Source: Myxococcales bacterium
Lineage (GTDB): Bacteria; Desulfobacterota; Binatia; HRBIN30
NCBI GenBank assembly: GCA_037445065.1
Contig: JBBILD010000011.1
Span: 64,001-128,000, forward strand
Reading direction: 5' to 3'
Length of the DNA stretch: 64,000 bases
The notes below the pieces were generated by a model. The model had not been told where the DNA came from, did no database searches, and worked only from the letters and a program-made list of their open reading frames with translations. A program made the position numbers and the translations under genes. The stretch's first letter is position 1; each line of letters starts with the position of its first letter. Shown piece after piece: positions 11,674 through 53,681 of the stretch.

Positions 11674-12870
11674 CTAGCGAGAAGTGGCGCCGTGCGCTTC
11701 GGCGAGCGCGATGGCGCGCTGTAAGTCGCCTGCGTTCAACGCGCCACGTACGAGCCGCCCGTTGATAAATAAGGTAGGCGTGGAGTTTACGCCCAGTTCT
11801 GCGCCGAGGCGGCTGTCGTCTTGCACACGCTGGCGCACTGCCGGGTCCTCGAGGCACGACTCGAAGCGGGGTACGTCGAGGCCGAGGTCGCGCGCCAAGC
11901 GAGAAAACAAGTCCCCATGGAGCTGGCGCTGGTGGGCAAACAGAAGGTCGTGGTACTCCCAGAATTTACCTTGCTGGCCGGCGCACTCGGCTGCAACTGC
12001 TGCACGACAAGCCATGGAATGAAACGGAGACGCCACTGCGGGGTTGCATTCTGAATTCAAAGGGAAATGCCGGAAGAGCACGCGCAAGCGGCGAGGTTCA
12101 CGCCGCCAAACTTCGTCCACGACTCGGTGAAAGTTTTTGCAATGCGCGCACTCGAAGTCGGAGAACTCTACGATCACTACGGGAGCATCTGGGCGGCCTC
12201 GCTGATTGCGGCCATCTAGAGGTACTGAGACCAGCGGCTGAGAAGTGAACCAATGAGAAAAGCGGGGGTCGCTTTGCAGGCTACCAGTGGGGTTCCGGCC
12301 CCGGCTGATCTCCCACCCGAGCGCCAGTGCAAGCACACCGAGCAGGGCAACTGCGGCTGCGAGCATGCCCCGGTCGAGCCCGCGGCTCTGTGCGAGCCCA
12401 CGCTGGTAGCTGGGAATCAGGCCCCGCCGTAGCCACCCGGCGGTAAGGAAGTTGAGGACCGCGACCACGTAGAGACCTGAGCACACGAGACACACGGTGT
12501 GCAGGAACCACAGGGCAACAACCGCCATGTAAACGGAGAACGCAAGGCCGCCCGTTGTGCCGAGTAAAAACGCGTTCGCGAGTGCACGCCGCCGCGCGGC
12601 GTGCTCCGTGCGCGCAACCAGCGCCGAGAGCACCACCAGGGCCCCGTAAAACACCAGTCCGAGGAGGGAGACAGAGATCCCCCAGAAGGAAGCCCACGGG
12701 CTAGTCAACACTACGTCGCAGTTGACGCTGCTGTTGATGTTGCAGAAGCTCGTGTACGAGGCGTTGCTACTCAGTTCGCGGTGGAGTCGCTCGGCAATGC
12801 CGCTCAGCACAAACCCGCAAGCGCTAATGCCACAAGCCAGCCACGCCCTCGCGCTCGGGGAAAACCTCAT
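11674..12870 (-). CDS. Vitamin K epoxide reductase (VKOR) - DsbA/thioredoxin fusion
   Basis: VKOR: FCNINSSVNCDVVLTSPWAS, VCLVC in a TM segment. DsbA: IVEFSDFECAHC, FRHFPL, GVNSTPTLFING. Confidence 0.9.
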   Translation of the reverse strand: MRFSPSARAWLACGISACGFVLSGIAERLHRELSSNASYTSFCNINSSVNCDVVLTSPWASFWGISVSLLGLVFYGALVVLSALVARTEHAARRRALANAFLLGTTGGLAFSVYMAVVALWFLHTVCLVCSGLYVVAVLNFLTAGWLRRGLIPSYQRGLAQSRGLDRGMLAAAVALLGVLALALGWEISRGRNPTGSLQSDPRFSHWFTSQPLVSVPLDGRNQRGRPDAPVVIVEFSDFECAHCKNFHRVVDEVWRREPRRLRVLFRHFPLNSECNPAVASPFHSMACRAAVAAECAGQQGKFWEYHDLLFAHQRQLHGDLFSRLARDLGLDVPRFESCLEDPAVRQRVQDDSRLGAELGVNSTPTLFINGRLVRGALNAGDLQRAIALAEAHGATSR

Positions 12871-12939
12871 TTTGCCATCCACCGCACCTTGGTTGTCGAA
12901 AGCGAACCTTGCACTCTTTCGCGACTCTGGTCTGCCCGG

Positions 12940-29924: not shown

Positions 29925-31214
29925 TCACTCGATCCGGCTCACCCGGCCTCCATCATCGGCGACGAAGAGCACGGTGCGGTCAGGTGCGGCGGCACTGACC
30001 GCCACTCCGCCGCGGATCGCCGCGCCTACGGGGATCGTCTGCGTGCCGCCCACTTGTGGGCCTGCATCTTCGATGACGTACACGTTGCCGTCCATGCTTG
30101 CAGCCACGACCGAGCGGCCAGCGCTGTGCACGAGCACCCCCAGTGGCGCGTGGATCGCTCCCGGCAAGCTGTGACTCCAAACTACCGCACCGCTGCTGGT
30201 GTCAACCGAGTGCACCTCGCCCGTGGTGGTTGCGATGTAGAGCCGGTCTCCTGCCAACGCCGGCGCCGCGAGCACCTGGGGTTCTCCCCCGCCAGCTCCG
30301 ACGGGCAGAGCCACGTTGTAGCGGAGTTGGCCTGTGGCAGCGTCTACCTTGAACAGCCGCCCGTTGGTGTCGACCGCAAACACCGCTTCCCCGTCCGGTC
30401 CTCCCTCATCCGTTGCGATCACCGGCCCTCCGGCGACCGGGGCACTCGTGCTCACCGTCCACAGTAAGAATCCGTCGTTGCGGGTCATGCGCAAAGTGCG
30501 GTCCTCACCGGCCCACACCACGTTCCCACCCGCACTGACGGCAGGACTTGTCGTGAAGGGAGCGATGGCAGTGCCGAGGAAACGCAGGACGCCGTTGGGA
30601 CAAATCCCCACTTCGTTGCGCGCGAGCGTGCCGGCATAAATTGTTCCGTCGGTGGGGCTCAGAGACAGCGACCGCCCGACCGCGCCACCCACGTTGAAGG
30701 GAAAGAACCCGGGCTGCTTGGCCCCCGTTTGGTCGATGGCGAAGACGAAACCTGACTCCGAACCGAAAAACAGCGCTTCTTGCCCAGAACGAACACCAAC
30801 GAGAGCGGTGGTACGAACCGAGAGGGCGCCAGTGAAGTTGAAGCGGCTCGGGTCCAACCTGGCCAGCGTTCCAGTGTCCAGCGCGTAGAGCTGGCCGTCG
30901 GTGTTGCCAGCGTACAGCACGGCATCGAGCGGTTGGTCGCTTGGCTGCCCGTTGCCCAGTACGGGTTGTACGACAAACGGCGACGGCGGCGTCGTTTCAA
31001 ACTGGGCGACGATGGTCGCGTTCAAGCGAACCGGCGCGGCGGTGATGGCCCCTGTGTTCTGGCTGTCTCTTTGGTATTTGGGCCAGCTCGAGCGGGCCAG
31101 GGTTGCGGGGTTCTGAAAACTGCACCGCGTCCCCCCGCCGGAGTCGCAGCCGGTTAGGCAAATCACGACGGACAAGGTAGCGCTGGCGAGAGCACGGATG
31201 CTTGGTCGGTTCAT
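29925..31214 (-). CDS. PQQ-type beta-propeller lipoprotein
   Basis: Lipobox LTGC; WPKYQRDSQNTG; repeated DGxLYA/VD...G motifs. Confidence 0.82.
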   Translation of the reverse strand: MNRPSIRALASATLSVVICLTGCDSGGGTRCSFQNPATLARSSWPKYQRDSQNTGAITAAPVRLNATIVAQFETTPPSPFVVQPVLGNGQPSDQPLDAVLYAGNTDGQLYALDTGTLARLDPSRFNFTGALSVRTTALVGVRSGQEALFFGSESGFVFAIDQTGAKQPGFFPFNVGGAVGRSLSLSPTDGTIYAGTLARNEVGICPNGVLRFLGTAIAPFTTSPAVSAGGNVVWAGEDRTLRMTRNDGFLLWTVSTSAPVAGGPVIATDEGGPDGEAVFAVDTNGRLFKVDAATGQLRYNVALPVGAGGGEPQVLAAPALAGDRLYIATTTGEVHSVDTSSGAVVWSHSLPGAIHAPLGVLVHSAGRSVVAASMDGNVYVIEDAGPQVGGTQTIPVGAAIRGGVAVSAAAPDRTVLFVADDGGRVSRIE

Positions 31215-32707
31215 TGGGTTCCAACTCGGTACAGATACCCGTCATCCGCCCCCACCCAGATGGTGCCGTCGAAGTCAACCGCGGCGGAGGAACGAATGGC
31301 GGCGCTGGTAAGCTGCAGCGGAGGCCACGCCGGCAAGCCGGTACCGTTGTCGAGGGCGTAGAGGATCCCAGCGGTCGTGCCGAACACCAGGTACCCGTCG
31401 GAGGAGAGCGCTGGCGAAGACAGCACCACCCCCTCGACTGCCTGCTGAACATCGCCGAGCGGGGCATCTCGACCATCACCGCCGCGCACGGCAATGATCC
31501 GCCCATCCTTTGTAACCCCAAACAACACCGACTGCAGTGACGGTGGAGTCGCTGTCGGAGAGGCGGTTGCCGTGGGGCTCGGCGACGCCTGTGGAACCGG
31601 GGTTGTGTCTGGGACTGGGCTCGGGGTGGGGGTTGCGGTCGCAATGGAGAGCGTGACAGTTGGAGTGAGCGTGGGAGTTTCCGTCGGCAATAACTGGGCT
31701 CCGAGAGCGAGCGAGGCAGCAAAACTCGCCTCAGGGAAGACCCGGAGCCAGAGTGTCCCGGAGCCGTCGGGGGCGAGCGCACGGATGGTCCCATCGCTCG
31801 TGTTGGCGTAAAACGCAGTCGTACTCACCACAGGGGCCAGTGCGACCGGTGTATCGGGGTCGGTGCCGGGCCCCACCTTCGAACGCCAGCGCAAGACGCC
31901 GCCTTCGAGCGCGGCGAGAAGATGCCAGTGGCCGTCGCTCGAGGCAACCAGCACGCCGTTGCCGAGGGCCAAAGCGGGAGACGACAAAAAAGGGGTTGGA
32001 TAGGACCCAGACTGGGGGTAGCGCCAGAGTACGTCGCCGGCTGGGCTCACCGCCCACACGATGCCTTGCTCCGTATCGGAGCTCGCCGCGGTTCGCACCG
32101 CAGCGGGGATTATGACTTGCACCGGCCGCCCGGTCACACTGTGGACCACCAGCAAGGGAGGTGCGGAAAACCGCGCCTGCGCCACTTCTCCGTTGCGCGC
32201 TGGGTCGAAACACAACGTACAGGTGGGTCCTTCCGCCCGGTCCTCGACGGCATAGAGGCGACCTTGCTCGCTGCCAAAATACACGACCGTGGGGCCACCC
32301 GGCGGAGCAAAGAGCGTCGGCGAGGAGAGAACTTCTCCGAGCCCCGGGTTCTCGGCCGGGCAAGCCTCGCAGGTCTCCACTCGCCAGCGTACCTCGCCGC
32401 TCGCCGCCGCGGAGAGAAGCGTCCCCGCTCGGGAAGCTACGTAGACCACGCCGTCAATTCCGATGGCAGGCGAAGAAATGACGGGACTGAGAGGCTCGCG
32501 CGCGTCTACCGGGATCGCCAGAGGAGTGGCACGCGCTGCCGCTACGTTTCCAGAACCCTGTCCTGTGTGTGCGCTGTCGTGCCGGAAGCGAGGCCAAGCG
32601 GCTGAGGGGACCGTCGGCAGGCCAGAGTTCCCGGAGTTACATCCCAGCAAGGCAATCGCCAGAAAACCGAAGCAAATCCACGAGTGGCGCGTTGTGCGTA
32701 TTCTCAT
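31211..32707 (-). CDS. PQQ-type beta-propeller lipoprotein with an internal Thr/Pro insert
   Basis: Start MRIRTT at 32707; lipobox LLGC; WPRFRHDSAHTG; SSPAIGIDGVVYV; SSAAVDFDGTIWVGADDGYLY. Confidence 0.85.
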   Translation of the reverse strand: MRIRTTRHSWICFGFLAIALLGCNSGNSGLPTVPSAAWPRFRHDSAHTGQGSGNVAAARATPLAIPVDAREPLSPVISSPAIGIDGVVYVASRAGTLLSAAASGEVRWRVETCEACPAENPGLGEVLSSPTLFAPPGGPTVVYFGSEQGRLYAVEDRAEGPTCTLCFDPARNGEVAQARFSAPPLLVVHSVTGRPVQVIIPAAVRTAASSDTEQGIVWAVSPAGDVLWRYPQSGSYPTPFLSSPALALGNGVLVASSDGHWHLLAALEGGVLRWRSKVGPGTDPDTPVALAPVVSTTAFYANTSDGTIRALAPDGSGTLWLRVFPEASFAASLALGAQLLPTETPTLTPTVTLSIATATPTPSPVPDTTPVPQASPSPTATASPTATPPSLQSVLFGVTKDGRIIAVRGGDGRDAPLGDVQQAVEGVVLSSPALSSDGYLVFGTTAGILYALDNGTGLPAWPPLQLTSAAIRSSAAVDFDGTIWVGADDGYLYRVGTQ

Positions 32708-32724
32708 TTCCGCTGTACCGAACC

Positions 32725-33300
32725 TCACGGGCGCTGGGCAACGAGCCGTGCAAGATAGGCCGGGCCGTTGTCGTCGAGCAAGCCCTCCTCCTCTTCGAGT
32801 ACAAGAAAGTCTTCGAAGTAGCCGCGCAGTTCTCCCCGTTGGAGCAGGTGATTCGGGTTGCGTGGATGCCCGAGTGCCTGCTGATCCATCAAGTACGTTT
32901 CCACCAACACCAACCCTCCGCTGCGAACGGCCTCCTTCATGGCCGGGAACAACGAGCGCTGCAAGTAGCGAATGTTGAGAATGGTGCCGAAGGCGGCGGT
33001 AGGCAGAGAGTATTGTTCCAGGTCGGCTTGAACCACCTCGATGGGTAAGCGTTCTTCTCGTGCCCTTTCGGCGAGCTGGCGGAGCGCGGTGAAGGCAATG
33101 TCCACCACCACGCAGCGCAGTCCCCGCCGCGCCAGAAAGACTGCGTTGCGCCCGTTTCCTCCGGCGACATCGAGCACTGGCGGTTGGATGGCTTCCGCCC
33201 ATCGCACTACGAGTGCCGACGGTGGAGCCGTTTGAGAGGCGGGAGACTGCTCGCGATACCGGCGCTCCCACTTCTCGCGATCTTCTCGCACCTGCTTCAC
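32725..33300 (-). CDS. Class I SAM-dependent methyltransferase (TehB-like)
   Basis: REKWERRY, VLDVAGGNGRNAVFLARRG, YLQRSLF; GTG start overlaps the comF stop. Confidence 0.85.
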   Translation of the reverse strand: MKQVREDREKWERRYREQSPASQTAPPSALVVRWAEAIQPPVLDVAGGNGRNAVFLARRGLRCVVVDIAFTALRQLAERAREERLPIEVVQADLEQYSLPTAAFGTILNIRYLQRSLFPAMKEAVRSGGLVLVETYLMDQQALGHPRNPNHLLQRGELRGYFEDFLVLEEEEGLLDDNGPAYLARLVAQRP

Positions 33301-34028
33301 CCCAGCACGGCACGCGCGAGCACGACCGCGTCCACGGAGGTCGCCCCGGCGCGGCGCAGGGCGGCGCTGCAATGGTGCAGCGTCGCCCCGGTGGTCATCA
33401 CATCGTCGAGCAGCAGGACCCGCTTGCCGGCCACCGTAGCGCGGTACCGGCGCGGTACAGTGAAAGCTCGGCGTACGTTTTGCAGCCTCTGCTTGCGCGT
33501 CAGTTCGGCCTGAGGAGGGGTGGGGCGCAGGCGGCAAAGCGTAAAAGGGGCCAGGGGTGCACGGGGATACGCAACTCGTGCCAGCAACAGGGCCTGGTTG
33601 AAGCCGCGCCAGCGCAGTCTTTGCGGATGGAGGGGAACGGGAACGAGCAAGTCGTAACCGGCTGCGCTCACCTCGATCGTGTGCTGAAGCAAGAGGCCGA
33701 GCGGCTGGGCGAGGCTTGCAAGTCGCCCGTATTTGAAGCGCGAAAGCGCGTGCCCCAAGGGGTTAGCCTGCTCGGGGTGATACAGGAACGCGGCCCGCAC
33801 GCGGGCAAAGGCAGGCGGGCGCCGAGTGCAGCGAGCGCAACGCAGGGACGTCCCGGCGCTCGCGGGCAGCGGCAGGGCGCAAATGCTGCAGATTGGCGGC
33901 CTAGCCACGCGGGTCTGCTGTGCGCAGGCCGAACAGAGGGGAAGCGAATTGGGCAGGAGCACACCACAGGCGCAGCACACCGGCGGGTAGACAAAATCGA
34001 GCATCCTCTCCCACACTGCACCGAGCAT
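33297..34028 (-). CDS. comF: ComF family protein (double Zn-ribbon + phosphoribosyltransferase domain)
   Basis: Four CxxC pairs, VPVPLH..R..WRGFNQA, VLLLDDVMTTGATL. Confidence 0.93.
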   Translation of the reverse strand: MLGAVWERMLDFVYPPVCCACGVLLPNSLPLCSACAQQTRVARPPICSICALPLPASAGTSLRCARCTRRPPAFARVRAAFLYHPEQANPLGHALSRFKYGRLASLAQPLGLLLQHTIEVSAAGYDLLVPVPLHPQRLRWRGFNQALLLARVAYPRAPLAPFTLCRLRPTPPQAELTRKQRLQNVRRAFTVPRRYRATVAGKRVLLLDDVMTTGATLHHCSAALRRAGATSVDAVVLARAVLG

Positions 34029-38007: not shown

Positions 38008-39537
38008 TTACTGGCAGGCGAGCTTGAGGCTAATCACGACATCCCCGAGGTCTTGCCCCACTCCGGGGAGAGGCGTGGTAGCCACCAAGTGCAATCCCCC
38101 TAGCTGGCCACTGTTGAAATTGGCGCAACTTCCCGAAAGCGGCGCACCGGAAAGCGTGGGCCCGGCGAGGGTCGCCAAGCTAGGCGCCGGACTCGAACAA
38201 GTCTGACCGCTGGGGCAATTCGCATCCTCGATGCAGGAGCCGCTGCCCGAGCAGCCACCAGGAGTACTGATTGCGTCCTGCAATGACGCCGAGGCGGTGC
38301 CAGTCGTGAGCGGAACGAGCAGTGCTTGGGAAGAGGCGAGCCCAGCAGAGTCATCGCCAGTGCAAGGCTGTCCGTCCGCTCCCTCTCCGCCGCTAGTCAC
38401 CACCGTGATGCGCAGTATAGCGAGCGCGACACAATCGCCCGCCCCCGTGGCGTCGGACCAAGCTTCCCGCAAGGCAGCGATGGTGGTACCCGGAAAGTCG
38501 GTATCACCCCCGCCTGTGCCTGACACGGGAGAGCCAGGGCAAGCATCGCCGTTGCTGGCGAGGCGGTCTTGGCACAGGGACACATCGCGCGGCAAGTTGG
38601 TGAAGGGCGACGAGCAGGCACAAAAGCCAGCGACGCGCACGAGTTCCGCGCACAGGGTCTTTCCTCCCACAGTGACAGGTGGCAGGGAGCGGCTCGCCTC
38701 ACCGGCCAACAAAACGCCTTCGCCGAGGTTGCCGAATGGGTACCCGAGACCCTGCAGCGTACAAAAGCCCAGCCCCGCTGCGGCAGGAACGGAGGCTGCC
38801 GGCGCACTGCCCGGGCGGTCAACCCGCAATCCAACATCGCTCGCACTGGTATCTATGGCGCAGGCGGCTTGGTGGCAATGCGAACTGAGGCGGCACAAGT
38901 CGGGCCGGCAACCGAGGTCGGTCAGCGGATTGCACGACGGCGAAAGTGTGCAGTTGGTGGCCGCCGTGCTCACACTGGTTCCCGGCGGTTTGCTCGGGGC
39001 ACTCAAGGCTTCCCCCAACGCTGTCAAGAAGTCCCCTTGCATGGCAAGTTGCCCCCGGAGCGCGCGCTCGAAGGCGGTCGCGACTAACCAAACCTTGGCG
39101 AAATCCCAGTCATGGACTCCCGGTGCGAGCGACCCGCCGGGCAAAAAACCAAGCTGGCGCAAATCGCTGGCGGTACACTTCGGAGTCGGGGTTCCGGTGA
39201 ACGCATTCTGTAAGGCAACGAAGAACTTGTCTCGCTCACTCTTTCCGCCGAGCACCTGGGGCAGGTCGAAGATACGATTGAGGTCTTTTTGGCAGCGGTG
39301 TGCGGCGAGGACGAGAAAGCCCGTGCCGGGCTTGGTCAGGTTCTTGACCTGCTCGCGGCGGATGGCATCAGCACACTTTTTGAGTGCGCTGGCGACTTTT
39401 GATTGAAAGAGGGCCGTACGTTTTTCGATTTCGAGCTGGCACTTGTCGATGGCAGCGTGCGCTGCCACGGGCAGGCCAAGGAACACGATGCAAAGGGCGA
39501 GGCAGAAACATTTTGGTCTCAATCGGCTTCGGCTCAT
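38008..39537 (-). CDS. Secreted cysteine-rich hypothetical protein
   Basis: Signal peptide ending AHA; more than 20 Cys; ATG at 39537. Confidence 0.75.
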   Translation of the reverse strand: MSRSRLRPKCFCLALCIVFLGLPVAAHAAIDKCQLEIEKRTALFQSKVASALKKCADAIRREQVKNLTKPGTGFLVLAAHRCQKDLNRIFDLPQVLGGKSERDKFFVALQNAFTGTPTPKCTASDLRQLGFLPGGSLAPGVHDWDFAKVWLVATAFERALRGQLAMQGDFLTALGEALSAPSKPPGTSVSTAATNCTLSPSCNPLTDLGCRPDLCRLSSHCHQAACAIDTSASDVGLRVDRPGSAPAASVPAAAGLGFCTLQGLGYPFGNLGEGVLLAGEASRSLPPVTVGGKTLCAELVRVAGFCACSSPFTNLPRDVSLCQDRLASNGDACPGSPVSGTGGGDTDFPGTTIAALREAWSDATGAGDCVALAILRITVVTSGGEGADGQPCTGDDSAGLASSQALLVPLTTGTASASLQDAISTPGGCSGSGSCIEDANCPSGQTCSSPAPSLATLAGPTLSGAPLSGSCANFNSGQLGGLHLVATTPLPGVGQDLGDVVISLKLACQ

Positions 39538-39700
39538 GCGCGGTCTCTCCCGGCGCGGTTTGTCCACAGAATTTTTGGAACCGGACGTCACCTTGCCTGA
39601 GGCGATCGCAGGATGTCAAGCGTGATTCGGAGCCTCGCGGAACCCATACACCCGGGAGCGCTGGGATTGGGGAGTGGTCCGGGAAGTAGGATCGCGCGGC

Positions 39701-40177
39701 TCAACTACCGAGCGCGATCTCCTCGACAAGTTCGAACGGCCGGTCCACGAATTGCAGATCTGCCACCTCGCCGGAGGCCCGCACCGTCGTCCGCCCCGCC
39801 CCTTTGGTGGCAATGGAGAACGTACAGGTGATCACCTCGCTATCGGCAGGCATCGGGTCCAACGAACCGGCGAGAACGGTGCGCACTCGCCCTGGTTCGG
39901 GCTCGAGGAAATGCAATTGTTTACCCGCTCGCGCCCCGTCGCTCGCACAAGTTTTGAGACGCAGCACCTGCGTGTCGTAACGGATCTCGCCGATCAGGGT
40001 GACAATATCCCCGCCGCGGTTCAGTGCGCGTAAACTCACGCGCGCCTCGTCGCTGCCCGTGCGTTCACCGAACAAGCGCAGGTCTGCGTTGCGCGCGGGG
40101 TCCGGTCGGCCGAACTGCCACCACCAAGCTAGGCCCACGACGATTCCTACGGGAACGATCCAAAGCCAGCGCCGCAT
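39701..40177 (-). CDS. Membrane-anchored single cohesin-like domain protein
   Basis: N-terminal TM (WLWIVPVGIVVGLAWWW), then IRYDTQVLRLKTC...GRVRTVLAGSLDP...VITCTFSI, homologous to the repeats of the upstream gene; 4-bp gap. Confidence 0.75.
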   Translation of the reverse strand: MRRWLWIVPVGIVVGLAWWWQFGRPDPARNADLRLFGERTGSDEARVSLRALNRGGDIVTLIGEIRYDTQVLRLKTCASDGARAGKQLHFLEPEPGRVRTVLAGSLDPMPADSEVITCTFSIATKGAGRTTVRASGEVADLQFVDRPFELVEEIALGS

Positions 40178-40181
40178 GACC

Positions 40182-42434
40182 TCATTCGAGCACGACCTGA
40201 CCGCTGACGCCAGAGGCCTCGTACTCGGTGAATTGATCGTCCGCGAACGATGCTCTGCCGACCGACAGCGTAGCGGTGCCCTGCGCTTGGGCGCTGGTCG
40301 TGAAACGGCACTGAGCAATGCGACCTGCCGGGAAGGGGGTCAAATCCCCAGCCATCACCAGGCGCAGCTCACCCGGCTCTGGGTTCCGAGTTTGGATCTG
40401 GGTTTGGGGGCTGAGGGCTTCATCTTTCGTACACTCGACGAAAGTGAGCACGTTGCCGTCCTCGTAGCGCACGATCAAGGGCGCGAGGGTAACCAAGTTC
40501 CTACCTACTGGAGCCAACGAAATGTCCACGGTCACTTGGCCGCCCGAGGCAATCGCGTCCTGCAACGTCACGCCAGGCAGCCCCTCAACGAAACGCACAC
40601 TACCGTCTATTCCCGAGGCAGAGAAGTCGTTGAACTGGTCGTCAGCGAGCTCCGCCCGCTCGAACTCCAACGCTGCCGTGCCGGTGGCACTTGCCACGGC
40701 AGAGAAGGTGCACTCGACGATTGGGCCTTCGTTGAGGGGAACGAGGTCGCCGGCCAACACGAGTCGCACCGTATCTGCTGCCACCGGGCTCGCGGTCACT
40801 TCTTTGCCGCGGCTCACGCCTACCGAGCGCAAGCAACGCCGGAAGGTCAAGCGGGAAGAATCGAAGCGGAATTCGAGCGGAGCAACGGTAACGATCTGGC
40901 GGAAGTTGGGCACCAGCGAGATCGGTACGGTGACGTCGTTGCCTGGTGCGACACTGACCGCCCCCAACACGACTTGCGGCGGCGCCGGGCCAGAAATGGT
41001 GATCGTGCCGGAGCGGCCGGTTGCCGCGAATTCTCGCTCCGCGGCGTCCGCAAGCTGAGCTGAGACAAAAGCAACCGTGGTCTGTCCGCTGGCTGTCACC
41101 GCGATCCGGAACTGGCAGCGCAGGATTTCCCCGTCGGCGAACGGAACCAGGTCCCCAGCCAGGACCACGCGCAGCACCCCAGCCGACGGCGTGGCTGCGG
41201 CAGCAATCTTTCCTGCACTGACCGCTGGCGCCTTGTCGCAGCGTTCGAAACCGAGTTGGCTCGGGTCGTAACCGAGGATCAGGGGAGCCAGCGTGACGGT
41301 CGTGTTCCCGTTTTGTTGCAGGGAGATCGGCACAGTCACCACAGTACCCGCGGCGGCGGACACGTCGCCGACGGTGATCGCGGGCGGGGTCACTTCGGGC
41401 GTGGCCGTCGCCGTGGCGGTACTGGTGTGAGACGGTGTGCTGGAAGGAGTCGGGGTGGGTGTGACGGTCGGCACCTCGGTTTCGGTGGGGGTAGCCGTCT
41501 GAGTCGGGGTGTCGGTTGGCGTGGGGGAAACTTCCGGGGTGGCGGTCGGCGTATCGCTCGGGATCGGGGTGGCCGTCGGGGTGGCACTAGGAGGGGCAGT
41601 TGGAGTGGGGGAGAGCGTGCGGGTGAATGTCCGCGTGGGGCCGGGTTGCGTTGGCGTGTTGGTGGGCACCCGGGTGAAGGTGTAGGTCGGGGTTACAGTG
41701 GCCCCTTCCGTCGGTGTATGCGTGGGTGTGTTCGTGCGGGTGGGCGATTGTACCGGCGTGGCTGTGGCGATCGGAGCGATGAGTGCTGCTCGCACTGCCG
41801 CGTTCGCGCCAGCCTGGAGGAACGCATCATTGGCAGCGTCGGAGGCAGAACCACCGCTCACCGCACCGGGGATCTGGCGAATCACGCGATCGATCTCGAT
41901 CAGGTCTGGGGTCGCGTAGCTGCACAGGCGCGGGCCGGCAGTGGCAAGGACCAGCCGCACCATCGCTTCGCTGATCGGGTCCACGTCCACGGGAGAGCGA
42001 GTAGAGGTGACGAACGCGCGCAGTGGCCCCGCAACAACGAGAAAGCGGCACGTATCCTCGGTTGAGTTTGCCGGCAAGGGAAGCTCGTACTGGCCGAGCG
42101 AATTGGTACGAGTCTCGGCCATCACCGTCTCCACGCCATCCGGCCGCCGGAAAACGAGTTGCACGACATTTCCGGCCCCGACGGGTACGAAGGAGCCGGA
42201 AAGAGCCTGCGCACTCGAACCGGCGAGTTGGTACAGAAGTTCCCAACGGCTCCTCGCCAGTTGGCCATTTGGGCTACGCACCGTGCCGCTAACTTTGACG
42301 CCGGGCGGTGGAGGAGGGGGTGGCAAGGTAAACCCGACGCTTGAGTCGCCACCACAACCACCCAACCACGCGAGGCTCGCAATCACGATGGGCAAGGCCA
42401 GCCCGACTGATATTTTTCGCTCCCGTCTCACCAT
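40182..42434 (-). CDS. Lipoprotein: uncharacterised N-terminal domain + ~125-aa Thr/Pro linker + three cohesin-like repeats
   Basis: Lipobox LGGC; repeats VTVPISL...YD...[16 protein letters not shown]...G.I/V; ATG at 42434. Confidence 0.8.
40185..41378 (-). repeat. Three tandem ~130-aa cohesin-like protein repeats
   Basis: Repeats at about 41378-40992, 40973-40587 and 40571-40185 share VT[LV]APL, LRxV[LM]AGDL.P, two Cys and LAD/ADD..F..SG..G. Confidence 0.8.
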
Positions 42435-42641: not shown

Positions 42642-43175
42642 CTATTTACGGTTGCGGTGCCGCTGGGGGATGGGGGACGGCGCGAAAGTGGCCTCCTGGA
42701 CTTGAGATGCAAGTCTACGGTCAAAGATGGCAAGCCACCGCTTGGCTGGCTCACTGACCAATTTGGTTGAGGGCCACAACCAGGACGGTTTCTCACCGGA
42801 AATCGGCGGTGGTCCGAAACGCCGCTCGAGCGCCGCTTGCATCTCGTGAGCAGGGAGATCGTTCGCGTACACCAAGATCATCCATAAGCGGCCGTTCCAA
42901 AAGCGGAACTCCAGATCCACAGGACCAGGCAGGATATTGTCGTTCGCCTTCCACACAACGAACCGCCGGCCGCGTCCATCGCCCTTCGCGTCTGGCAGGG
43001 GTGGGAGTTCTTGGCTTCCAGGATACGCCTGGCGGAACTCTTCTAGACTCATACCGAGCTGTGCTTGGGCCCAACCAGTGGGTGCAGGTGTCTGCTGGGG
43101 GTCGGAATCCGCGAACGCTGGGCACGAACACAGCCACACTGCGGCGATGAACGAGAAAACTCGGCGACTGGGCAT
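42642..43175 (-). CDS. Secreted hypothetical protein
   Basis: Signal peptide (PAFA-D); GWAQAQLGMSLEEFRQAYP...FRFWNGRLWMI...LERRFGPP. Confidence 0.7.
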   Translation of the reverse strand: MPSRRVFSFIAAVWLCSCPAFADSDPQQTPAPTGWAQAQLGMSLEEFRQAYPGSQELPPLPDAKGDGRGRRFVVWKANDNILPGPVDLEFRFWNGRLWMILVYANDLPAHEMQAALERRFGPPPISGEKPSWLWPSTKLVSEPAKRWLAIFDRRLASQVQEATFAPSPIPQRHRNRK

Positions 43176-43226
43176 GCCGCCGAAGCAACCAAAGGAGCCA
43201 AGGATTGTCGAGGGCACCGCGGGCTT

Positions 43227-46033: not shown

Positions 46034-46103
46034 ATTGGCGCTTGACAATCGGCGCGGCAGCGAGTCAGTTAAGCGGGCGACGAATACGCGGAAAGGAAGC
46101 TAC

Positions 46104-46865
46104 ATGAACGTGGGTTGCAGCAGGCGAGGGGTTGGCTGCGCGGGTCTGGCGCGACGGGTGTTTACCTGTCTGGTGGGATACTCGATCGGCGCGGCGCTGA
46201 TCGCAGGCTGTGGGAGCGATGGATCCTCCGCGGTAACCGTGATTCGAGTCCCGACCCCGGGCGCCGGCGTGATCACTGGGATCGTGCAAGCTCCGAACGG
46301 TGTGATTGCTGCTCCCCGCATTTGGGAACCGAGGTTTGCTTGGAGTTTGTGGTCGAGCATGGCCGAAGCGCTGCAGGGAGTGCGGCCGGTTGGCGCAGGA
46401 GTGAGCGTGTCGCTCAGCATGTTGGACAGTGCCGATTTTGCCGACGGCACCATTGACGCCGCACTCCCGCTGGTCGTAGACGTCGTGACCGAGGCGGACG
46501 GCCGTTACACGATCATGGATCCGGCCGCGGATGACGTAACTTCTTGCCGCAAGATGGTCACTGCTGGCACGGGCACGGCCGTGATGCGTTCTTTTGTGTA
46601 CGGGCGGGAGATTCCGATTGACTCGTCGAGCGAGGCGCTGGTGCGGGTGGTGCTGGATTACGTCGCTGGCTCGACCTCACAACTCTGTGACTTCGACACG
46701 GCGGAATTGGTGCGCTTGCAGCGGAAGGTGGCCGATGTTGTGTTTGCGGCGCGCGGCAATTCTGTGGAAGAGTTGAACCAACGCGCTTACGATCTCGCCC
46801 GCACGAATCGCTCCTTGCGTGCGGCGCTGGAAGAGGCGGCGCACACGTCCTCCGAAACGAACTGA
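46104..46865 (+). CDS. Hypothetical lipoprotein, paralogous to the N-terminal domain of the cohesin-repeat lipoprotein
   Basis: Lipobox IAGC; G.V.[AS]PNG, PVGAG, CR, SEA[LM]VR.VL, LC, RAAL shared with 40182..42434; AAGGA RBS. Confidence 0.75.
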   Translation: MNVGCSRRGVGCAGLARRVFTCLVGYSIGAALIAGCGSDGSSAVTVIRVPTPGAGVITGIVQAPNGVIAAPRIWEPRFAWSLWSSMAEALQGVRPVGAGVSVSLSMLDSADFADGTIDAALPLVVDVVTEADGRYTIMDPAADDVTSCRKMVTAGTGTAVMRSFVYGREIPIDSSSEALVRVVLDYVAGSTSQLCDFDTAELVRLQRKVADVVFAARGNSVEELNQRAYDLARTNRSLRAALEEAAHTSSETN

Positions 46866-49265: not shown

Positions 49266-49667
49266 TCACTGCGCATCCAACAGTCGCGCCTCGCCACGGG
49301 CGTTGTAATTGACCAGGGGTCGCTCGTCGTTCGCACTGAGGATGGCAACGATTCCCTCGTGCACGTTGTGAGACCACAGTTGCTGCCACTCGTTGGCCAG
49401 TTTGAGGCGATCGAGTCGCGGCACCTTCCGCCATGCTTCCGGATCCACGGCGATTAGGAGAATTCTTCCTTGGCGGCGGACCGAACGGACACCCACCACT
49501 TGGCGTAACTGGGGATCAGCCTGCAGCCGGGCGACGATCTCTTCGGGAGAAATCCAGTGGCCGGGTGCCTGACGGGCGGGGAGGCCCAGCAGCAGAACGA
49601 AAGCGAGCAGCAGCCAACCCGCGGCCTGGCCTCCGATGCGGGCCGCGGGCTGGCGCTTAAGCCTCAC
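49266..49667 (-). CDS. Small exported hypothetical protein
   Basis: GTG start overlapping the upstream stop (GTGA); hydrophobic WLLLAFVLLLG then HWISPEEIVARL. Confidence 0.6.
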   Translation of the reverse strand: MRLKRQPAARIGGQAAGWLLLAFVLLLGLPARQAPGHWISPEEIVARLQADPQLRQVVGVRSVRRQGRILLIAVDPEAWRKVPRLDRLKLANEWQQLWSHNVHEGIVAILSANDERPLVNYNARGEARLLDAQ

Positions 49668-52600
49668 GGGTTGGGTGCGGGCGTCGGAGCCGGGGTCGGA
49701 AACTGGATGCGATTCCACGGTAAATGCTCCACGCCTGGCTTTTTGAGTTCCTCTTCGCGCTGCCGTACTCGTTCCCGATCGTCCATGACGCGCGGGCTCT
49801 TGCGATCGTCTGCCACCGCGCGCGCCGGCAGCAGTTGGTCGAGCAGGCGCGCCCACCAGGAACGCGCAGGCGCCTCAGCCGGGGCAGTAGCGACCATGAT
49901 CGAAGGTGCCCCAGAACTCACCGTTGCTGCACCAGCGCTGCACGAAGGGGGCAACGCCGGACAAGTGGGCTCGCCCGTTCCTGGAGAGAGGGTGATGCCG
50001 TCGTATTCTCCGTTGCCGTCGTGGTCGGCGAAAATCGGGTTCGTGAAACCCCACGGTAACAAGTTCCCAGCAATGGCGTTAACGGCGGGATCGAGCGGAG
50101 GAGGACCGGTGAGGGGCAAGTTTTGGCTGGCTTCGACGATGTAATAACTGTCCTCAGTCACGGTGTCCGTATAGGTCGCATTGAAGCGCACCACATTGGC
50201 GTTGGTTTGTTCGAACGGGTTGGAGGGGTTGTTGGCGACCGCCGGGGTGGTGGTGGAGTTGAAGCAAGCGAGCACGCAACCGTTCTTGATAATCCGCACT
50301 TCTTCCACCGGGATCCACGGTGCCGCTTGTACCTGAATGTGCAGGTTGATGCTGCTCGCTGACGGACCCACCGTGTCGCCCATTTCCACCGTGGGCCCGC
50401 CATTGTCCGCGGTCACAGTAACGAACGGTCCGCTCGATACGGTCATCTGGCCGTCCAACACTGCTTGGTTGAATTGCTTCACGTCGAGCGCGCCACTGGT
50501 CGGCAAGTCCCCCGCCTTCACGAACGTGCGCGAAAAGCCAGGCAGTTCTTCCACGATCCGGTGGCTATCGGAGACGCCGGTCCCCCAAACGAAATGGCGG
50601 GCACTGTTCTTTCCGACTTCGATGGCTTGGTTCAGCAGGCTCAGCCAGTCACGGCGCACAAGTTTCAGGTCCGAGATCGTCCCCCGGGTCGCGCCGTTGT
50701 GGATTTCCATGACATCGAAATCGATGTTCCGTGTGCCGTTCGGGTTCTCGAAGCCGCTGCCACACCCCTGGGTCGCACACAACGTCGGCCGCGGCACGAC
50801 ATTCAAGTCGAGCAGCACCTGGTTGCAGCCATTTGCGGCGCCAGGAATCGAGCCGCTGTCGCAACCGCACAGACCACCGCCGGTGCACTGCGCGTGAGTG
50901 GTGCATGAAGTGCCATCGTTCGTGCCCCCGAAACACTTGCTGTTGGAGCATTTTACGGGATACTCCTGGCAAGTATCGATGGCGCCCGGGGGATTGAAGC
51001 CAATGTTGTCGAACATGCCGATGTTGACCACCCCACCCAACCCGGCACGAGGATGGTTGAGCTGGACGACTTGCTCCCCCAGGTCCACACACGGTGCGCC
51101 GCCGCAGTCCGAGTTCGAGGAGCAGGGCTGGCCCTTTTTCGAGCCACTGGCACATTGAAAATCGGACTGTGCACGGAGGCGGTCGTAAATCACATTGGCG
51201 CTGACCACTTCGTCTTCGATCGAGCCGGACCGTCGCAAATTCGGGTTGAAGATGGACGGCCAAGCGTTGATGTGGCCCCACCCGTTCGCTGTAAAAGGCT
51301 GGTGGGGGACAGACGTGGTCACCTCCGTTCCGACGATCGAGGCCACGAACGGCTCCATCTTGAGCTTTTTGATGATCGGCGCGTAGTCCGTGTTGATGTC
51401 GTGGTCGGTGGAGACCATGACCTCGAGACCTTCTCCGGCGTAGCTCCGCACCCGCGCCTCGAGCGGTGCAGACGAATCCAAGCTGCGCCCTGAGTGGATG
51501 TGGAAATCGGCTGAAACGAAGCCGGCGGTATCCACCACTCGCTTGATGGTTTGGATGCCGAGGTCGGTTGTGGCCCCACTGGTGATCGTTACCGATGAGA
51601 CTTGCTGGGCCGTGTATTCGAGGCCGCGGGAAATCGTGACCGTGTATGTCCCTGGTTTCACGTCCACAACGGCCTTTCCTTTGGCGTCCGTGTAAATCAC
51701 GTGCATCTGTCCGCCACCTTTTTGCACGCCCGGGAAGGAGACGGCCTTCAGGTCAGTGGTGTCTGCGCGGCACAGGTAGCCAGGGTCGCAATCAGAATCC
51801 GCGTTGCAAAGATGGCCACGGCACTTACCGTCGCTTGCACAAACGGTTCCTGTCGGACAACCACTGCTGCACGGAACCGGCACCTTGTTCGTGCAAAGGC
51901 GGAAACAAGTGTTGCCGCTGCCGCAAGTGCTGTCGTTTGTGCAGGAAGTCGCAAAGTTGTTCGAACACATGCCGGACCGCGTATCGAACTCGAAGGCGGC
52001 GAACTCGCGCTTCATGTCCGGCGACGGGCTCAGCGAGACTTTTGCCGGGATTCCGGTGTTGCTGTCCGCATCCCGGACTTCGATTTTCAGCCTGCCCGGC
52101 TTGGTAAGTGGAATGGGCGGAATCGCGGTGTTTTGGCCCGCGGTGACCGTGAACGGAGGCGTGACGATGTCGTTTTGTCCGGGCACACTGACCAGCGCCA
52201 CGTAGTCCCCTTCGGGCAACTGAATCTTGCTGAAGCTACTCTTGGTGCGCACTGAAGAAATCGGCGCGTTGTCCAGGAGCGCCCACTGCGGACCCAGCCC
52301 AGCGAAAGTGGTCCCACCCACTCGTACAAAGGTGACGGTTCCTTCCACCGGCGAGGCGGGTTGGAATTTCCCAGACACCGTGCCGAGCGACGAGGCAAGC
52401 GGAGTTTGGTTCAGGATGCTCTCCAGGTTGCGCTTGTCGCCCACGACGCTTGCCACGTCGTTTCGTTCGCCGAGGATAAGGCGGCGCTCGAAGGTCCGCG
52501 ACGCGTTGTTCGCAAGTGGCGGAGGGCTCACGTTGGGAAAGATCGTGCCGGTGAGAAAGGCCGATTGCAGGCTTTGCATGACAAAGCCAAAAGCGACCTG

Positions 52601-53551
52601 GGTGATGGTCCCGCCAGCGGCGGGCCCGTTGGAATCGTCGAACCCCTCGCCAGGAATATACCCGTACGCGATTCCCCCCACTTTCTTGTTCCGCGCCATA
52701 ACCCCGTCTTTCTGGTCCAGATTCCCAGGGGTGGCAAAGAAGGGGGCTTGGGTGAGTGCAGCCACGATGGCACCAGCGTTACTGAGGTCCAAAATAGGAT
52801 GTGTAAAGCCGCGGCCTTTATCCGGAGCGAACGGCACCAGGCCGCGCCCGCCCCATAGCAGCACGTCGAAAATCGGTATGGACTTGGGGCTCCCAGTCAG
52901 GTTCCACACCTCGGTGCGGAGGAAGAGCGTGCGCGGGTTGGCTTTGCAGGCCTTGTAGGTGGTGCGCACGCGGATCGTCGGGTTGGTGCGAGTCGAGCAG
53001 AGCGCACTCGGGGAGTCGCACAGCCCGAGCATGATCCCGTACACGGTAATCGCTGCGCAGTCTTCCTCGCTCGAGGGCAGGGGGCAATTTGGGTTCGAGC
53101 TGCCGACGGTCGCGCACGGGTTGTTCCCACTGGGCACGCCCCAAGGAACCTCGTCCCCTTTCCGGAACAAAAACACGTTTGCCAAGCTCAGGCCGCCGAC
53201 GTTGAAGCTCTGCGGCAATTGATCGTTGTGCTTGCCTTTGATGCCTAGGTCGAGCAGGGTACCGCCGGTTTCGACGGCGTTGGAGGAGGTTAGGTCCACC
53301 GTTGCGCTGCCACCGACTGCCGGGATGGTTTCCGTGTCAATGTTGTCAATGATGGCGACCACTTTGCCGTTGGTCAGGGCCCAGTCGCCAATGCCGCCGG
53401 CGCTATCCGATCCGCCGATGAGCAACGCATTCGCGTTTGTGGGAGTGATCTGTTCTGCCTTGCACGGGCCGCACACTGCCACTGCCGGCTGGCTAGCCAG
53501 CAGCACTGCCACAAACCCAGCGAGCACCAAGCCCGGTTGTGTCCTGCTCAT
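49664..53551 (-). CDS. Large secreted PHP-domain metallohydrolase (CehA/McbA-like) with Cys-rich inserts
   Basis: Signal peptide; GGIGDWALTNG, SRGLEY, ADFHIHSGRSLDS, VSTDHD, GTEVTT, GHINAWP, NHPR, VSDSH, FTNPIFAD. Confidence 0.85.
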   Translation of the reverse strand: MSRTQPGLVLAGFVAVLLASQPAVAVCGPCKAEQITPTNANALLIGGSDSAGGIGDWALTNGKVVAIIDNIDTETIPAVGGSATVDLTSSNAVETGGTLLDLGIKGKHNDQLPQSFNVGGLSLANVFLFRKGDEVPWGVPSGNNPCATVGSSNPNCPLPSSEEDCAAITVYGIMLGLCDSPSALCSTRTNPTIRVRTTYKACKANPRTLFLRTEVWNLTGSPKSIPIFDVLLWGGRGLVPFAPDKGRGFTHPILDLSNAGAIVAALTQAPFFATPGNLDQKDGVMARNKKVGGIAYGYIPGEGFDDSNGPAAGGTITQVAFGFVMQSLQSAFLTGTIFPNVSPPPLANNASRTFERRLILGERNDVASVVGDKRNLESILNQTPLASSLGTVSGKFQPASPVEGTVTFVRVGGTTFAGLGPQWALLDNAPISSVRTKSSFSKIQLPEGDYVALVSVPGQNDIVTPPFTVTAGQNTAIPPIPLTKPGRLKIEVRDADSNTGIPAKVSLSPSPDMKREFAAFEFDTRSGMCSNNFATSCTNDSTCGSGNTCFRLCTNKVPVPCSSGCPTGTVCASDGKCRGHLCNADSDCDPGYLCRADTTDLKAVSFPGVQKGGGQMHVIYTDAKGKAVVDVKPGTYTVTISRGLEYTAQQVSSVTITSGATTDLGIQTIKRVVDTAGFVSADFHIHSGRSLDSSAPLEARVRSYAGEGLEVMVSTDHDINTDYAPIIKKLKMEPFVASIVGTEVTTSVPHQPFTANGWGHINAWPSIFNPNLRRSGSIEDEVVSANVIYDRLRAQSDFQCASGSKKGQPCSSNSDCGGAPCVDLGEQVVQLNHPRAGLGGVVNIGMFDNIGFNPPGAIDTCQEYPVKCSNSKCFGGTNDGTSCTTHAQCTGGGLCGCDSGSIPGAANGCNQVLLDLNVVPRPTLCATQGCGSGFENPNGTRNIDFDVMEIHNGATRGTISDLKLVRRDWLSLLNQAIEVGKNSARHFVWGTGVSDSHRIVEELPGFSRTFVKAGDLPTSGALDVKQFNQAVLDGQMTVSSGPFVTVTADNGGPTVEMGDTVGPSASSINLHIQVQAAPWIPVEEVRIIKNGCVLACFNSTTTPAVANNPSNPFEQTNANVVRFNATYTDTVTEDSYYIVEASQNLPLTGPPPLDPAVNAIAGNLLPWGFTNPIFADHDGNGEYDGITLSPGTGEPTCPALPPSCSAGAATVSSGAPSIMVATAPAEAPARSWWARLLDQLLPARAVADDRKSPRVMDDRERVRQREEELKKPGVEHLPWNRIQFPTPAPTPAPNP

Positions 53552-53681
53552 GACTCCCTCCTTTGCCCGCAGGCGATCCGCACGGTTCGATCGCCTTGCT
53601 TTCACTCTTTTGTCTCGCGGTTGTCAATCCGGGTCGTGAACTCTGTTGCAGCTTTGGGCCCTGTTGCTAGCTATCGTAGTT

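Follow-up and report, generated by a model that had tools for sequence, protein, structure and literature searches.

We analysed a window of 64,000 nucleotides (positions 64,001 to 128,000 of contig JBBILD010000011.1, here contig C11) from the 3.79-Mb, 97.7% complete genome (G000) of a bacterium of the class Binatia, probably of the order HRBin30 (PMC8262859), and found that two adjacent reverse-strand genes, a lipoprotein gene (gene 1) and a shorter one behind it (gene 2), together encode four cohesins. On balance, we lean towards the view that the two proteins dock secreted Cys-rich proteins that carry a dockerin tag of a small, insert-type class, as an accessory branch of a larger two-class system. 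In this model, gene 1 would contribute three cohesins on a Thr/Pro stalk that follows a predicted lipid anchor, gene 2 would provide a predicted membrane-anchored fourth cohesin, and docking would proceed by a predicted calcium-dependent cohesin-dockerin contact of canonical geometry. Gene 1 would act at the outer surface and gene 2 would hold cargo at the periplasmic face of the inner membrane, while the about 49 dockerin-like tags of the main type would mainly use cohesins of another class (class B) on MYXO-CTERM-type scaffolds encoded elsewhere.

All four repeats are cohesins, as an earlier note on this DNA had proposed. Repeats 1-3, which are mutually 41-43% identical, all exceed the curated cut-off of the Pfam Cohesin profile PF00963 (24.1 bits; Table 1), and a phmmer search of PDB sequences with the first of them found a C. 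cellulolyticum scaffoldin cohesin (1g1k/2vn5, E 5e-4 to 6e-4), these being the only two of the four listed matches below E 0.001. The domain of gene 2 has no Pfam match; it is 26-30% identical to repeats 1-3 (HHalign 98.5%), and its structure model (predicted local distance difference test, pLDDT, 83.2; two of five models above 80) shows nine strands after an anchor helix. This fold model was made for gene 2, and repeats 1-3 were placed as cohesins by profile, repeat 1 also in the complex model described below. Cohesin entries make up all fold matches of gene 2 listed to rank 24 (best 2jh2, E 6.4e-8), with collagen-binding adhesin domains among the matches from rank 25; as cohesins fill the top of this list, a generic fold of the immunoglobulin or carbohydrate-binding-module kind was rejected. 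The two Cys that the earlier note had placed at equivalent positions of each copy lie exactly 41 residues apart in all four (77/118 in gene 2), and both are kept in 40/40 non-redundant homologous cohesin domains. In gene 2, the pair sits in strands 4 and 7, which are neighbours in cohesin topology; hence, a beta4-beta7 disulfide is likely, judging from the model.

A profile built from the genome's own dockerin-like modules gave 59 matches in 57 open reading frames (ORFs; best reversed decoy, E 8). The strong modules, 53 in 52 ORFs, divide into a main type (49 ORFs), comprising the GDCNGDG..TIDEL modules which the earlier note had tentatively described as abundant in Binatota proteins, and an insert type (3 ORFs), a dockerin with an extra Cys-bearing loop. 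Main-type modules contain duplicated D-x-N/D-x-D-G loops, whose position 12 is Glu in 45/46 and 46/46 cases, and by a crude rule 38 of the 52 tagged ORFs have a signal-peptide-like start. Our Pfam scan covered 53 tagged ORFs (51 of the 52 strong and 2 weak) and revealed peptidases (trypsin, M10, M28), redox proteins (an MtrC/MtrF-like multihaem protein, a di-haem peroxidase, MbnP and a P460-like protein) and propellers (FG-GAP/ASPIC, BNR, NHL and others), besides many ORFs without any family. None of the 53 carries a glycoside hydrolase family, one tagged propeller having a sub-threshold oligogalacturonate lyase match, which agrees with the non-cellulosomal nature suggested before. GH9 had no match in the genome although the control worked, the blank for GH48 is uninformative since control genomes gave none either, and neither of the two GH5 proteins has a dockerin match. 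The window itself, as noted earlier, has no dockerin match, and no glycoside hydrolase family was found among its long ORFs, which were those scanned. The predicted cargo, judged by these sequence families, is thus proteases, cytochromes and adhesin-like proteins rather than cellulases.

Several tagged proteins deserve mention in their own right. At C7:151986-154454 (contig:position), a dockerin is fused to the MtrC/MtrF-like multihaem cytochrome, a candidate for a docked protein of extracellular electron transfer, and the tagged di-haem peroxidase (CCP_MauG) and MbnP, at C2:58097-59476 and C10:7508-9523, are possibly a docked copper-handling set. More canonical dockerins (C5:50568, C8:37826, C14:75084, C17:54490, C18:1585, C25:36950 and C29:26357), several above the cut-off of the Pfam dockerin profile PF00404, occur on long Thr/Pro proteins and may be a third class. 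At least 12 secreted proteins share a Cys-rich beta-domain (C13:15154-17055, window 38008-39591, and others on C46, C15, C19, C36, C39, C42 and C11); this family has no Pfam or Atlas match, an Atlas search with the cargo domain giving nothing usable, and is borne by dockerins or fused to the lipoprotein N-domain described below. Our best guess is that such docked Cys-rich cargo serves as a non-enzymatic surface coat or adhesin.

The genome contains at least 15 cohesin domains in 11 ORFs (best decoy E 0.17), so that tags outnumber sockets about 3:1. The four window cohesins define class A, and most others belong to class B, which is homologous to it (HHalign 98.4%); the window locus is the largest complete cohesin array found in the assembly. 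Behind two dockerin genes, a class-B scaffold begins at C11:145793 (whole region, C11:142766-146864), where C11 has a 127-base overlap with C22, and ends in a MYXO-CTERM tail on C22:1-414, its identical tandem cohesins breaking the assembly. With TIGR03901 (cut-off 20), this tail scores 21.3 and its orthologue in the relative G023 18.5, below the cut-off, and C21:55272 gave no match. In Myxococcus, the MYXO-CTERM tag is reported to direct proteins to the surface (PMC11980579). The C11/C22 protein is probably the main scaffold of the order, and two dockerin genes with a class-B scaffold recur in 6 of the 7 regions fetched, which were chosen from adjacent matches. In a survey of 151 genomes of the class, with profiles built mostly from G000, main-type tags occurred in 19/19 genomes of the order (16 with at least 41) and in 2/132 others, and class B in 19/19 and 3/132, respectively. 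Class A reached at least 95 bits in 12/52 genomes of the order; these 12 may overlap the relatives' loci examined below, hence the counts were not summed, and the matches in G000, G023, G005 and G076 are circular because their sequences were in the alignment. A strict insert-type scan (8/52 genomes at E 1e-22) misses diverged insert types scoring 32-57 bits and was not used as a co-occurrence test.

Since main-type tags and class B are present in all 19 genomes and class A in 12 of 52, the window locus is not a universal platform of the order. The earlier idea that it serves the GDCNGDG-type modules was not borne out, as these co-occur with class B and the dockerin next to the locus in relatives is usually of the insert type. 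Within a plug-and-socket system that spans the genome, the locus is instead probably an accessory branch specific to one class. C21:55272-59491 encodes a propeller protein with a dockerin-cohesin-dockerin arrangement and, behind it, a protein that has two cohesins and a tail resembling a sorting signal. By eye, the C-terminal domains of C4:28478, C4:27772, C4:32708 and C15:153 look cohesin-like; they had no HHalign support against single sequences and were left uncounted.

We examined 14 scaffold loci of relatives, 13 of them informative (G180 ends at a contig edge); they represent kin and are not independent events. A dockerin gene follows the scaffold in 13/13, with a single-cohesin gene in between in 9, so the two-gene synteny is shared well beyond this genome. 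This next-door dockerin is of the insert type in 10/13; in each of the remaining three loci, the scaffold includes class-B cohesins. The neighbouring dockerin protein begins with what resembles a signal peptide and lacks a second anchor, and its orthologue in the studied genome, on C46, is 57-70% identical to the relatives' partner in the C-terminal part. In G076 (C18:802700-810500), two lipoprotein scaffolds in tandem, bearing 3 and 4 class-A-like cohesins, precede an insert-type dockerin gene. Scaffold frames are frameshifted in loci L077 (G023) and L080 (G005), both from few-contig assemblies, by sequencing error or decay.

Structure modelling of cohesin 1 with the C46 insert-type dockerin and three controls gave 0.87 for the pair and 0.01 for the best control, which points to the dockerin-compatible face expected from the earlier note. 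The runs agree in 100% of contacts, with partner pLDDT of at least 87 and a dockerin fold of pLDDT 88; the mark was reached by 116/157 solved and 2/215 mismatched pairs, a calibration that holds only roughly for these alignments. Modelled contacts involve cohesin residues 31-35, 61-67, 73-80 and 111-119 with dockerin helices 1 and 3, and sit on the canonical face (strands 8-3-6-5). In solved complexes, cohesin strands 3, 5, 6 and 8 likewise contact dockerin helices 1 and 3 (PMC5429695). The contact residues T32, R73, V75 and A113 are kept in 34, 30, 37 and 28 of 40 domains and are invariant in 5/5 gene 2 homologues. On the dockerin side, a modelled contact position is Val or Ile in 46/46 main-type modules and Ala in 6/7 insert-type ones.

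Gene 1 matches the layout given in the earlier note; it has a LGGC lipobox (Cys27), a domain of about 195 residues (N-domain), a 131-residue stalk with 47 Thr and 30 Pro, and the three repeats. It is predicted to be a lipoprotein, lipidated on the lipobox Cys behind a signal peptide, and this Cys-Gly is invariant in 15/15 aligned N-domains. The top Foldseek match of the N-domain model (pLDDT 84.9) is the non-haem domain of PgcA (9i0d, E 9.3e-3), the only match, among those listed, that spans both subdomains (Z 10.0, root-mean-square deviation 4.1, 126 aligned residues, 13% identity); we took residues 58-252 as the PgcA secretion domain, and the model aligns to residues 58-244. The genome encodes GspC, D, E and F of the type II secretion system (T2SS), and secretins are also present. 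Given the PgcA-like N-domain and the T2SS genes, export of gene 1 to the outer surface is plausible by analogy, and we incline slightly towards it. Residues ~37-52 of the N-domain (window 42279-42326) are predicted as a low-confidence helix ending in a nearly invariant A-x-A-L, which resembles a processing site; PgcA is cleaved within the equivalent domain. Among the best 150 of 803 N-domain matches, 81 proteins exceed 330 residues, of which 43 carry 1-6 cohesins and 16 the Cys-rich cargo domain, 3 of these proteins having both, and none a haem motif; in G000 itself, C13:15154 is an N-domain fused directly to the Cys-rich cargo domain. As the N-domain carries either cohesins or cargo, these sequences suggest that scaffold plus dockerin-cargo replaces a covalent anchor-cargo fusion. 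An Atlas search with the N-domain was uninformative (best 0.89, hypothetical proteins).

The ATG of gene 2 (position 40177) lies 4 bases past the gene 1 stop codon (40184-40182), and both this spacing and the fourth, diverged copy were described correctly before. The transmembrane anchor remains a prediction from sequence, since the hydrophobic N-terminus is moderate (best 19-residue mean hydropathy 1.48; model helix 7-22); in two relatives, a lipobox-like start replaces the transmembrane stretch of the single-cohesin protein. The host has two membranes, as secretins and T2SS genes are present, and with an uncleaved N-terminal anchor the cohesin of such a cell would sit at the inner membrane, facing the periplasm, and hold cargo there; we judge this reasonably probable. 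Hence, of the surface system first envisaged, surface display would apply to gene 1, whereas gene 2 would face the periplasm.

Several observations weigh against our interpretation. The PgcA likeness is moderate and tied with a plain beta-sandwich (3e8v, Z 9.2), it is weaker against the wild-type PgcA chain (9i0e, Z 7.3), and the N-domain profile found no match among PDB sequences, PgcA included. Taken over all 26 contact residues, conservation is weak (0.61 versus 0.54, permutation p 0.08); a sharper contrast (0.62 versus 0.42) was obtained for the outward residues of the two sheets, which were hand-assigned without coordinates. Because solved look-alikes exist and cohesin-dockerin is a textbook pair, the pass of the complex model may reflect likeness, not binding, and the preference for insert-type over main-type dockerins is one that we infer from locus pairing and distribution. 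The Cys-bearing dockerin classes fall mostly below the PF00404 cut-off of 22.9 bits (C46 module, 21.3); Pfam mostly reports EF-hand pieces on tagged ORFs, and seven other genome modules pass PF00404 alone, so that the dockerin likeness of the tags rests on motif and model, not on the profile. Moreover, the insert-type gene of this genome lies off-locus, on C46:79-2280, in agreement with other strains' contigs. A misassembly that removed the dockerin gene was considered and rejected: C46 does not overlap the window, and contigs of other strains bridge the junction of gene 2 and the downstream gene without insertion (X2, 38594-41292; X5, 39301-39741), hence the layout is not an assembly artefact. 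Finally, in G041 an insert-type gene persists while the 18 kb fetched contain no cohesin, and G041 and G092 have no class-A match at E 1e-14, yet both have insert-type dockerins.

Could the locus rather be a general platform that binds the about 49 main-type dockerins and displays proteases, cytochromes and propellers? The size of its cohesin array, the homology of the two classes with a strand-6 Arg common to both, the excess of tags over sockets, scaffolds combining both cohesin classes, and a protein (P0013) joining a main-type dockerin to two class-A cohesins would all suit such a role. However, main-type tags follow class B through all 19 genomes of the order while strong class A is in 12/52, G041 and G092 lack a strong class-A match while having at least 41 main-type tags, and main-type genes stand beside class-B scaffolds in 6/7 of the regions picked from adjacent matches; we therefore regard a general platform as unlikely. 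We consider it rather improbable that the cohesin-fold repeats are rigid spacer or adhesin domains that bind no dockerin, the calcium-loop modules being stand-alone stabilising or adhesive tags. The non-significant conservation of the whole interface (p 0.08), the separation of scaffold and dockerin neighbour in this genome and their unpaired state in G041, and the adhesin domains from rank 25 of the fold matches fit that explanation, and the presence of cohesin or dockerin domains is said not to reveal their role (PMC9012536). Against it stand the dockerin gene after the scaffold in 13/13 informative loci, the joint expansion of both module types in one order and their near absence outside it (2 and 3 of 132), the outward Val kept in 37/40 domains, and a modelled interface that is canonical and far above controls.

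The sockets might also bind dockerins on neighbouring cells or matrix, in cell-cell adhesion or kin recognition rather than same-cell display. An adhesion trait that varies would be in keeping with the long stalks, the 1-6 cohesins and the patchy occurrence in close kin, a partnership role has been proposed for cohesin/dockerin proteins in consortia that anaerobic methanotrophic archaea (ANME) form with sulfate-reducing bacteria (SRB; PMC10553843), and the kin receptor TraA is anchored by MYXO-CTERM (PMC11980579). Nevertheless, the neighbouring dockerin protein without a second anchor looks like soluble cargo and an inner-membrane cohesin could not reach another cell, which makes this role very unlikely. 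Extending our preferred model of insert-type docking, we may tentatively picture an order that organises much of its exported proteome through a disulfide-stabilised two-code system: class B with MYXO-CTERM would present some 50 proteins (proteases, multihaem and copper proteins, adhesins), and class-A PgcA-like lipoprotein scaffolds with the inner-membrane socket would stage and display a separate Cys-rich coat protein. This broader picture is possible rather than probable.

Table 1. Positions of the two-gene cohesin locus and neighbouring features in the 64,000-nucleotide window.
Feature	Position	Strand	Basis
Gene 1, lipoprotein scaffoldin, 750 residues: N-domain, Thr/Pro stalk, three class-A cohesins	40182..42434	-	PF00963 89.7 bits, 3 stretches
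Predicted lipoprotein signal peptide ending LGG-C27	42354..42434	-	sequence
N-domain, ~195 residues (~27-222): transthyretin-like beta-sandwich and helical subdomain	41769..42356	-	structure model, moderate PgcA resemblance
Thr/Pro-rich stalk	41388..41768	-	77/131 residues T or P
Cohesin 1, residues 350-482, Cys399/Cys440	40989..41387	-	PF00963 46.4 bits
Cohesin 2, residues 485-617, Cys534/Cys575	40584..40982	-	PF00963 25.4 bits (25.7 in second scan)
Cohesin 3, residues 619-750, Cys668/Cys709	40185..40580	-	PF00963 29.5 bits (30.3 in second scan)
Gene 2, 158 residues: predicted N-terminal membrane anchor and one diverged cohesin	39701..40177	-	nine-strand model
Predicted membrane anchor of gene 2	~40121-40168	-	hydrophobic N-terminus
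Diverged cohesin of gene 2	~39713-40081	-	structure model, fold matches
Downstream gene, conserved, secreted Cys-rich protein without dockerin	38008..39591	-	25% homologues downstream in relatives
Upstream neighbour, conserved	42642..43217	-	homologues near locus in G023, G076, G005, L082
Stand-alone lipoprotein paralogue of N-domain	46035..46865	+	80.6 bits to N-domain profile, 32% identity

Regarding the flanking genes, the C-terminal domain of the downstream gene is related to the insert-type cargo domain (HHalign 89%) and to C13:15154 (97.9%), the upstream neighbour has no Pfam or NCBIfam match, promoter and terminator scans stayed at chance level, and no RNA holder was among the entries listed. 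Elsewhere in the window, a VKOR-DsbA fusion (11677-12939) fits disulfide formation for many Cys-rich exported proteins, and 29925-33313 and 49664-53605 encode, respectively, two tandem PQQ-like propeller lipoproteins and a 1313-residue secreted Cys-rich protein with a weak PHP-domain match. A dispersed intergenic repeat of 50-250 bases, seen at C46:164-441 and on many other contigs, has dozens of copies in the genome.

The locus would work like a cellulosomal anchoring scaffoldin but is not a cellulosome, since no dockerin-bearing glycoside hydrolases, which have been used as the cellulosome criterion (PMC11557425), were found. Compared with cellulosomal type I pairs (C. cellulolyticum 1g1k/2vn5, C. 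acetobutylicum CohA2 6kgf, C. thermocellum OlpA/OlpC 3ul4/4dh2), it shares the cohesin fold of nine strands, a Pro/Thr linker followed by tandem cohesins, a separate single-cohesin anchor, paired calcium-loop dockerins, a predicted 8-3-6-5 binding face, apparently more than one specificity class, and adaptor-like proteins. It differs in having no glycoside hydrolase among the 53 scanned tagged proteins and no GH9 in the genome, invariant Cys pairs in both modules, a two-membrane host, and a scaffold that ends in a cohesin, not a dockerin. Moreover, its anchors are a lipobox, a signal anchor or a MYXO-CTERM tail, whereas those of cellulosomes are SLH domains or sortase signals. The best structural matches of gene 2, the X82 cohesins of C. 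perfringens glycoside hydrolases (2jh2, 2vo8, 2w1n) and the Archaeoglobus fulgidus cohesin 2xdh, are likewise compact cohesins outside cellulose degradation; each of them occurs singly, on an enzyme or a small archaeal protein, whereas here multi-cohesin proteins form dedicated scaffolds and a genome has about 50 tagged proteins.

ANME and syntrophic SRB, the latter also Desulfobacterota, similarly have scaffoldin-like proteins, with up to five cohesins, and cargo other than carbohydrate-active enzymes (CAZymes), known from genomes and expression only (PMC9012536, PMC10553843). Their ANME scaffolds carry a dockerin, however, and the cargo named consists of ABC substrate-binding and S-layer proteins; a lipoprotein-anchored array, disulfide-type modules and a two-class code are not described in the parts of these reports that we drew on. 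PgcA of Geobacter sulfurreducens is a lipoprotein with Pro/Thr linkers and three tethered modules that leaves the periplasm (PMC10570954, PMC11520253). It resembles gene 1 in its lipobox, non-haem domain of about 195 residues, linkers and three C-terminal modules, which are monohaem domains there and cohesins here, at 13% identity and Z 10.0 and 7.3. Amylosomes and mucinolysomes also use cohesin-dockerin assembly on substrates other than cellulose, but are CAZyme complexes of Gram-positive gut bacteria (PMC12632915). We found no paper on Binatia or Binatota cohesins or dockerins, though supplements of Binatota genome papers could list such domains.

What cohesins and dockerins do outside cellulose degraders is a general question, for which this lineage gives a testable case: its genomes each carry dozens of tags that are nearly identical, along with dedicated scaffolds and adaptor-like proteins, there are two candidate specificity classes, and the parts are small domains that can be expressed and assayed. 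If the predicted binding is true, cellulosome-style assembly would extend to a two-membrane bacterium and to non-carbohydrate cargo, including an MtrC/MtrF-like cytochrome, and designer complexes would gain connector pairs that are compact, probably stabilised by disulfides and perhaps orthogonal.

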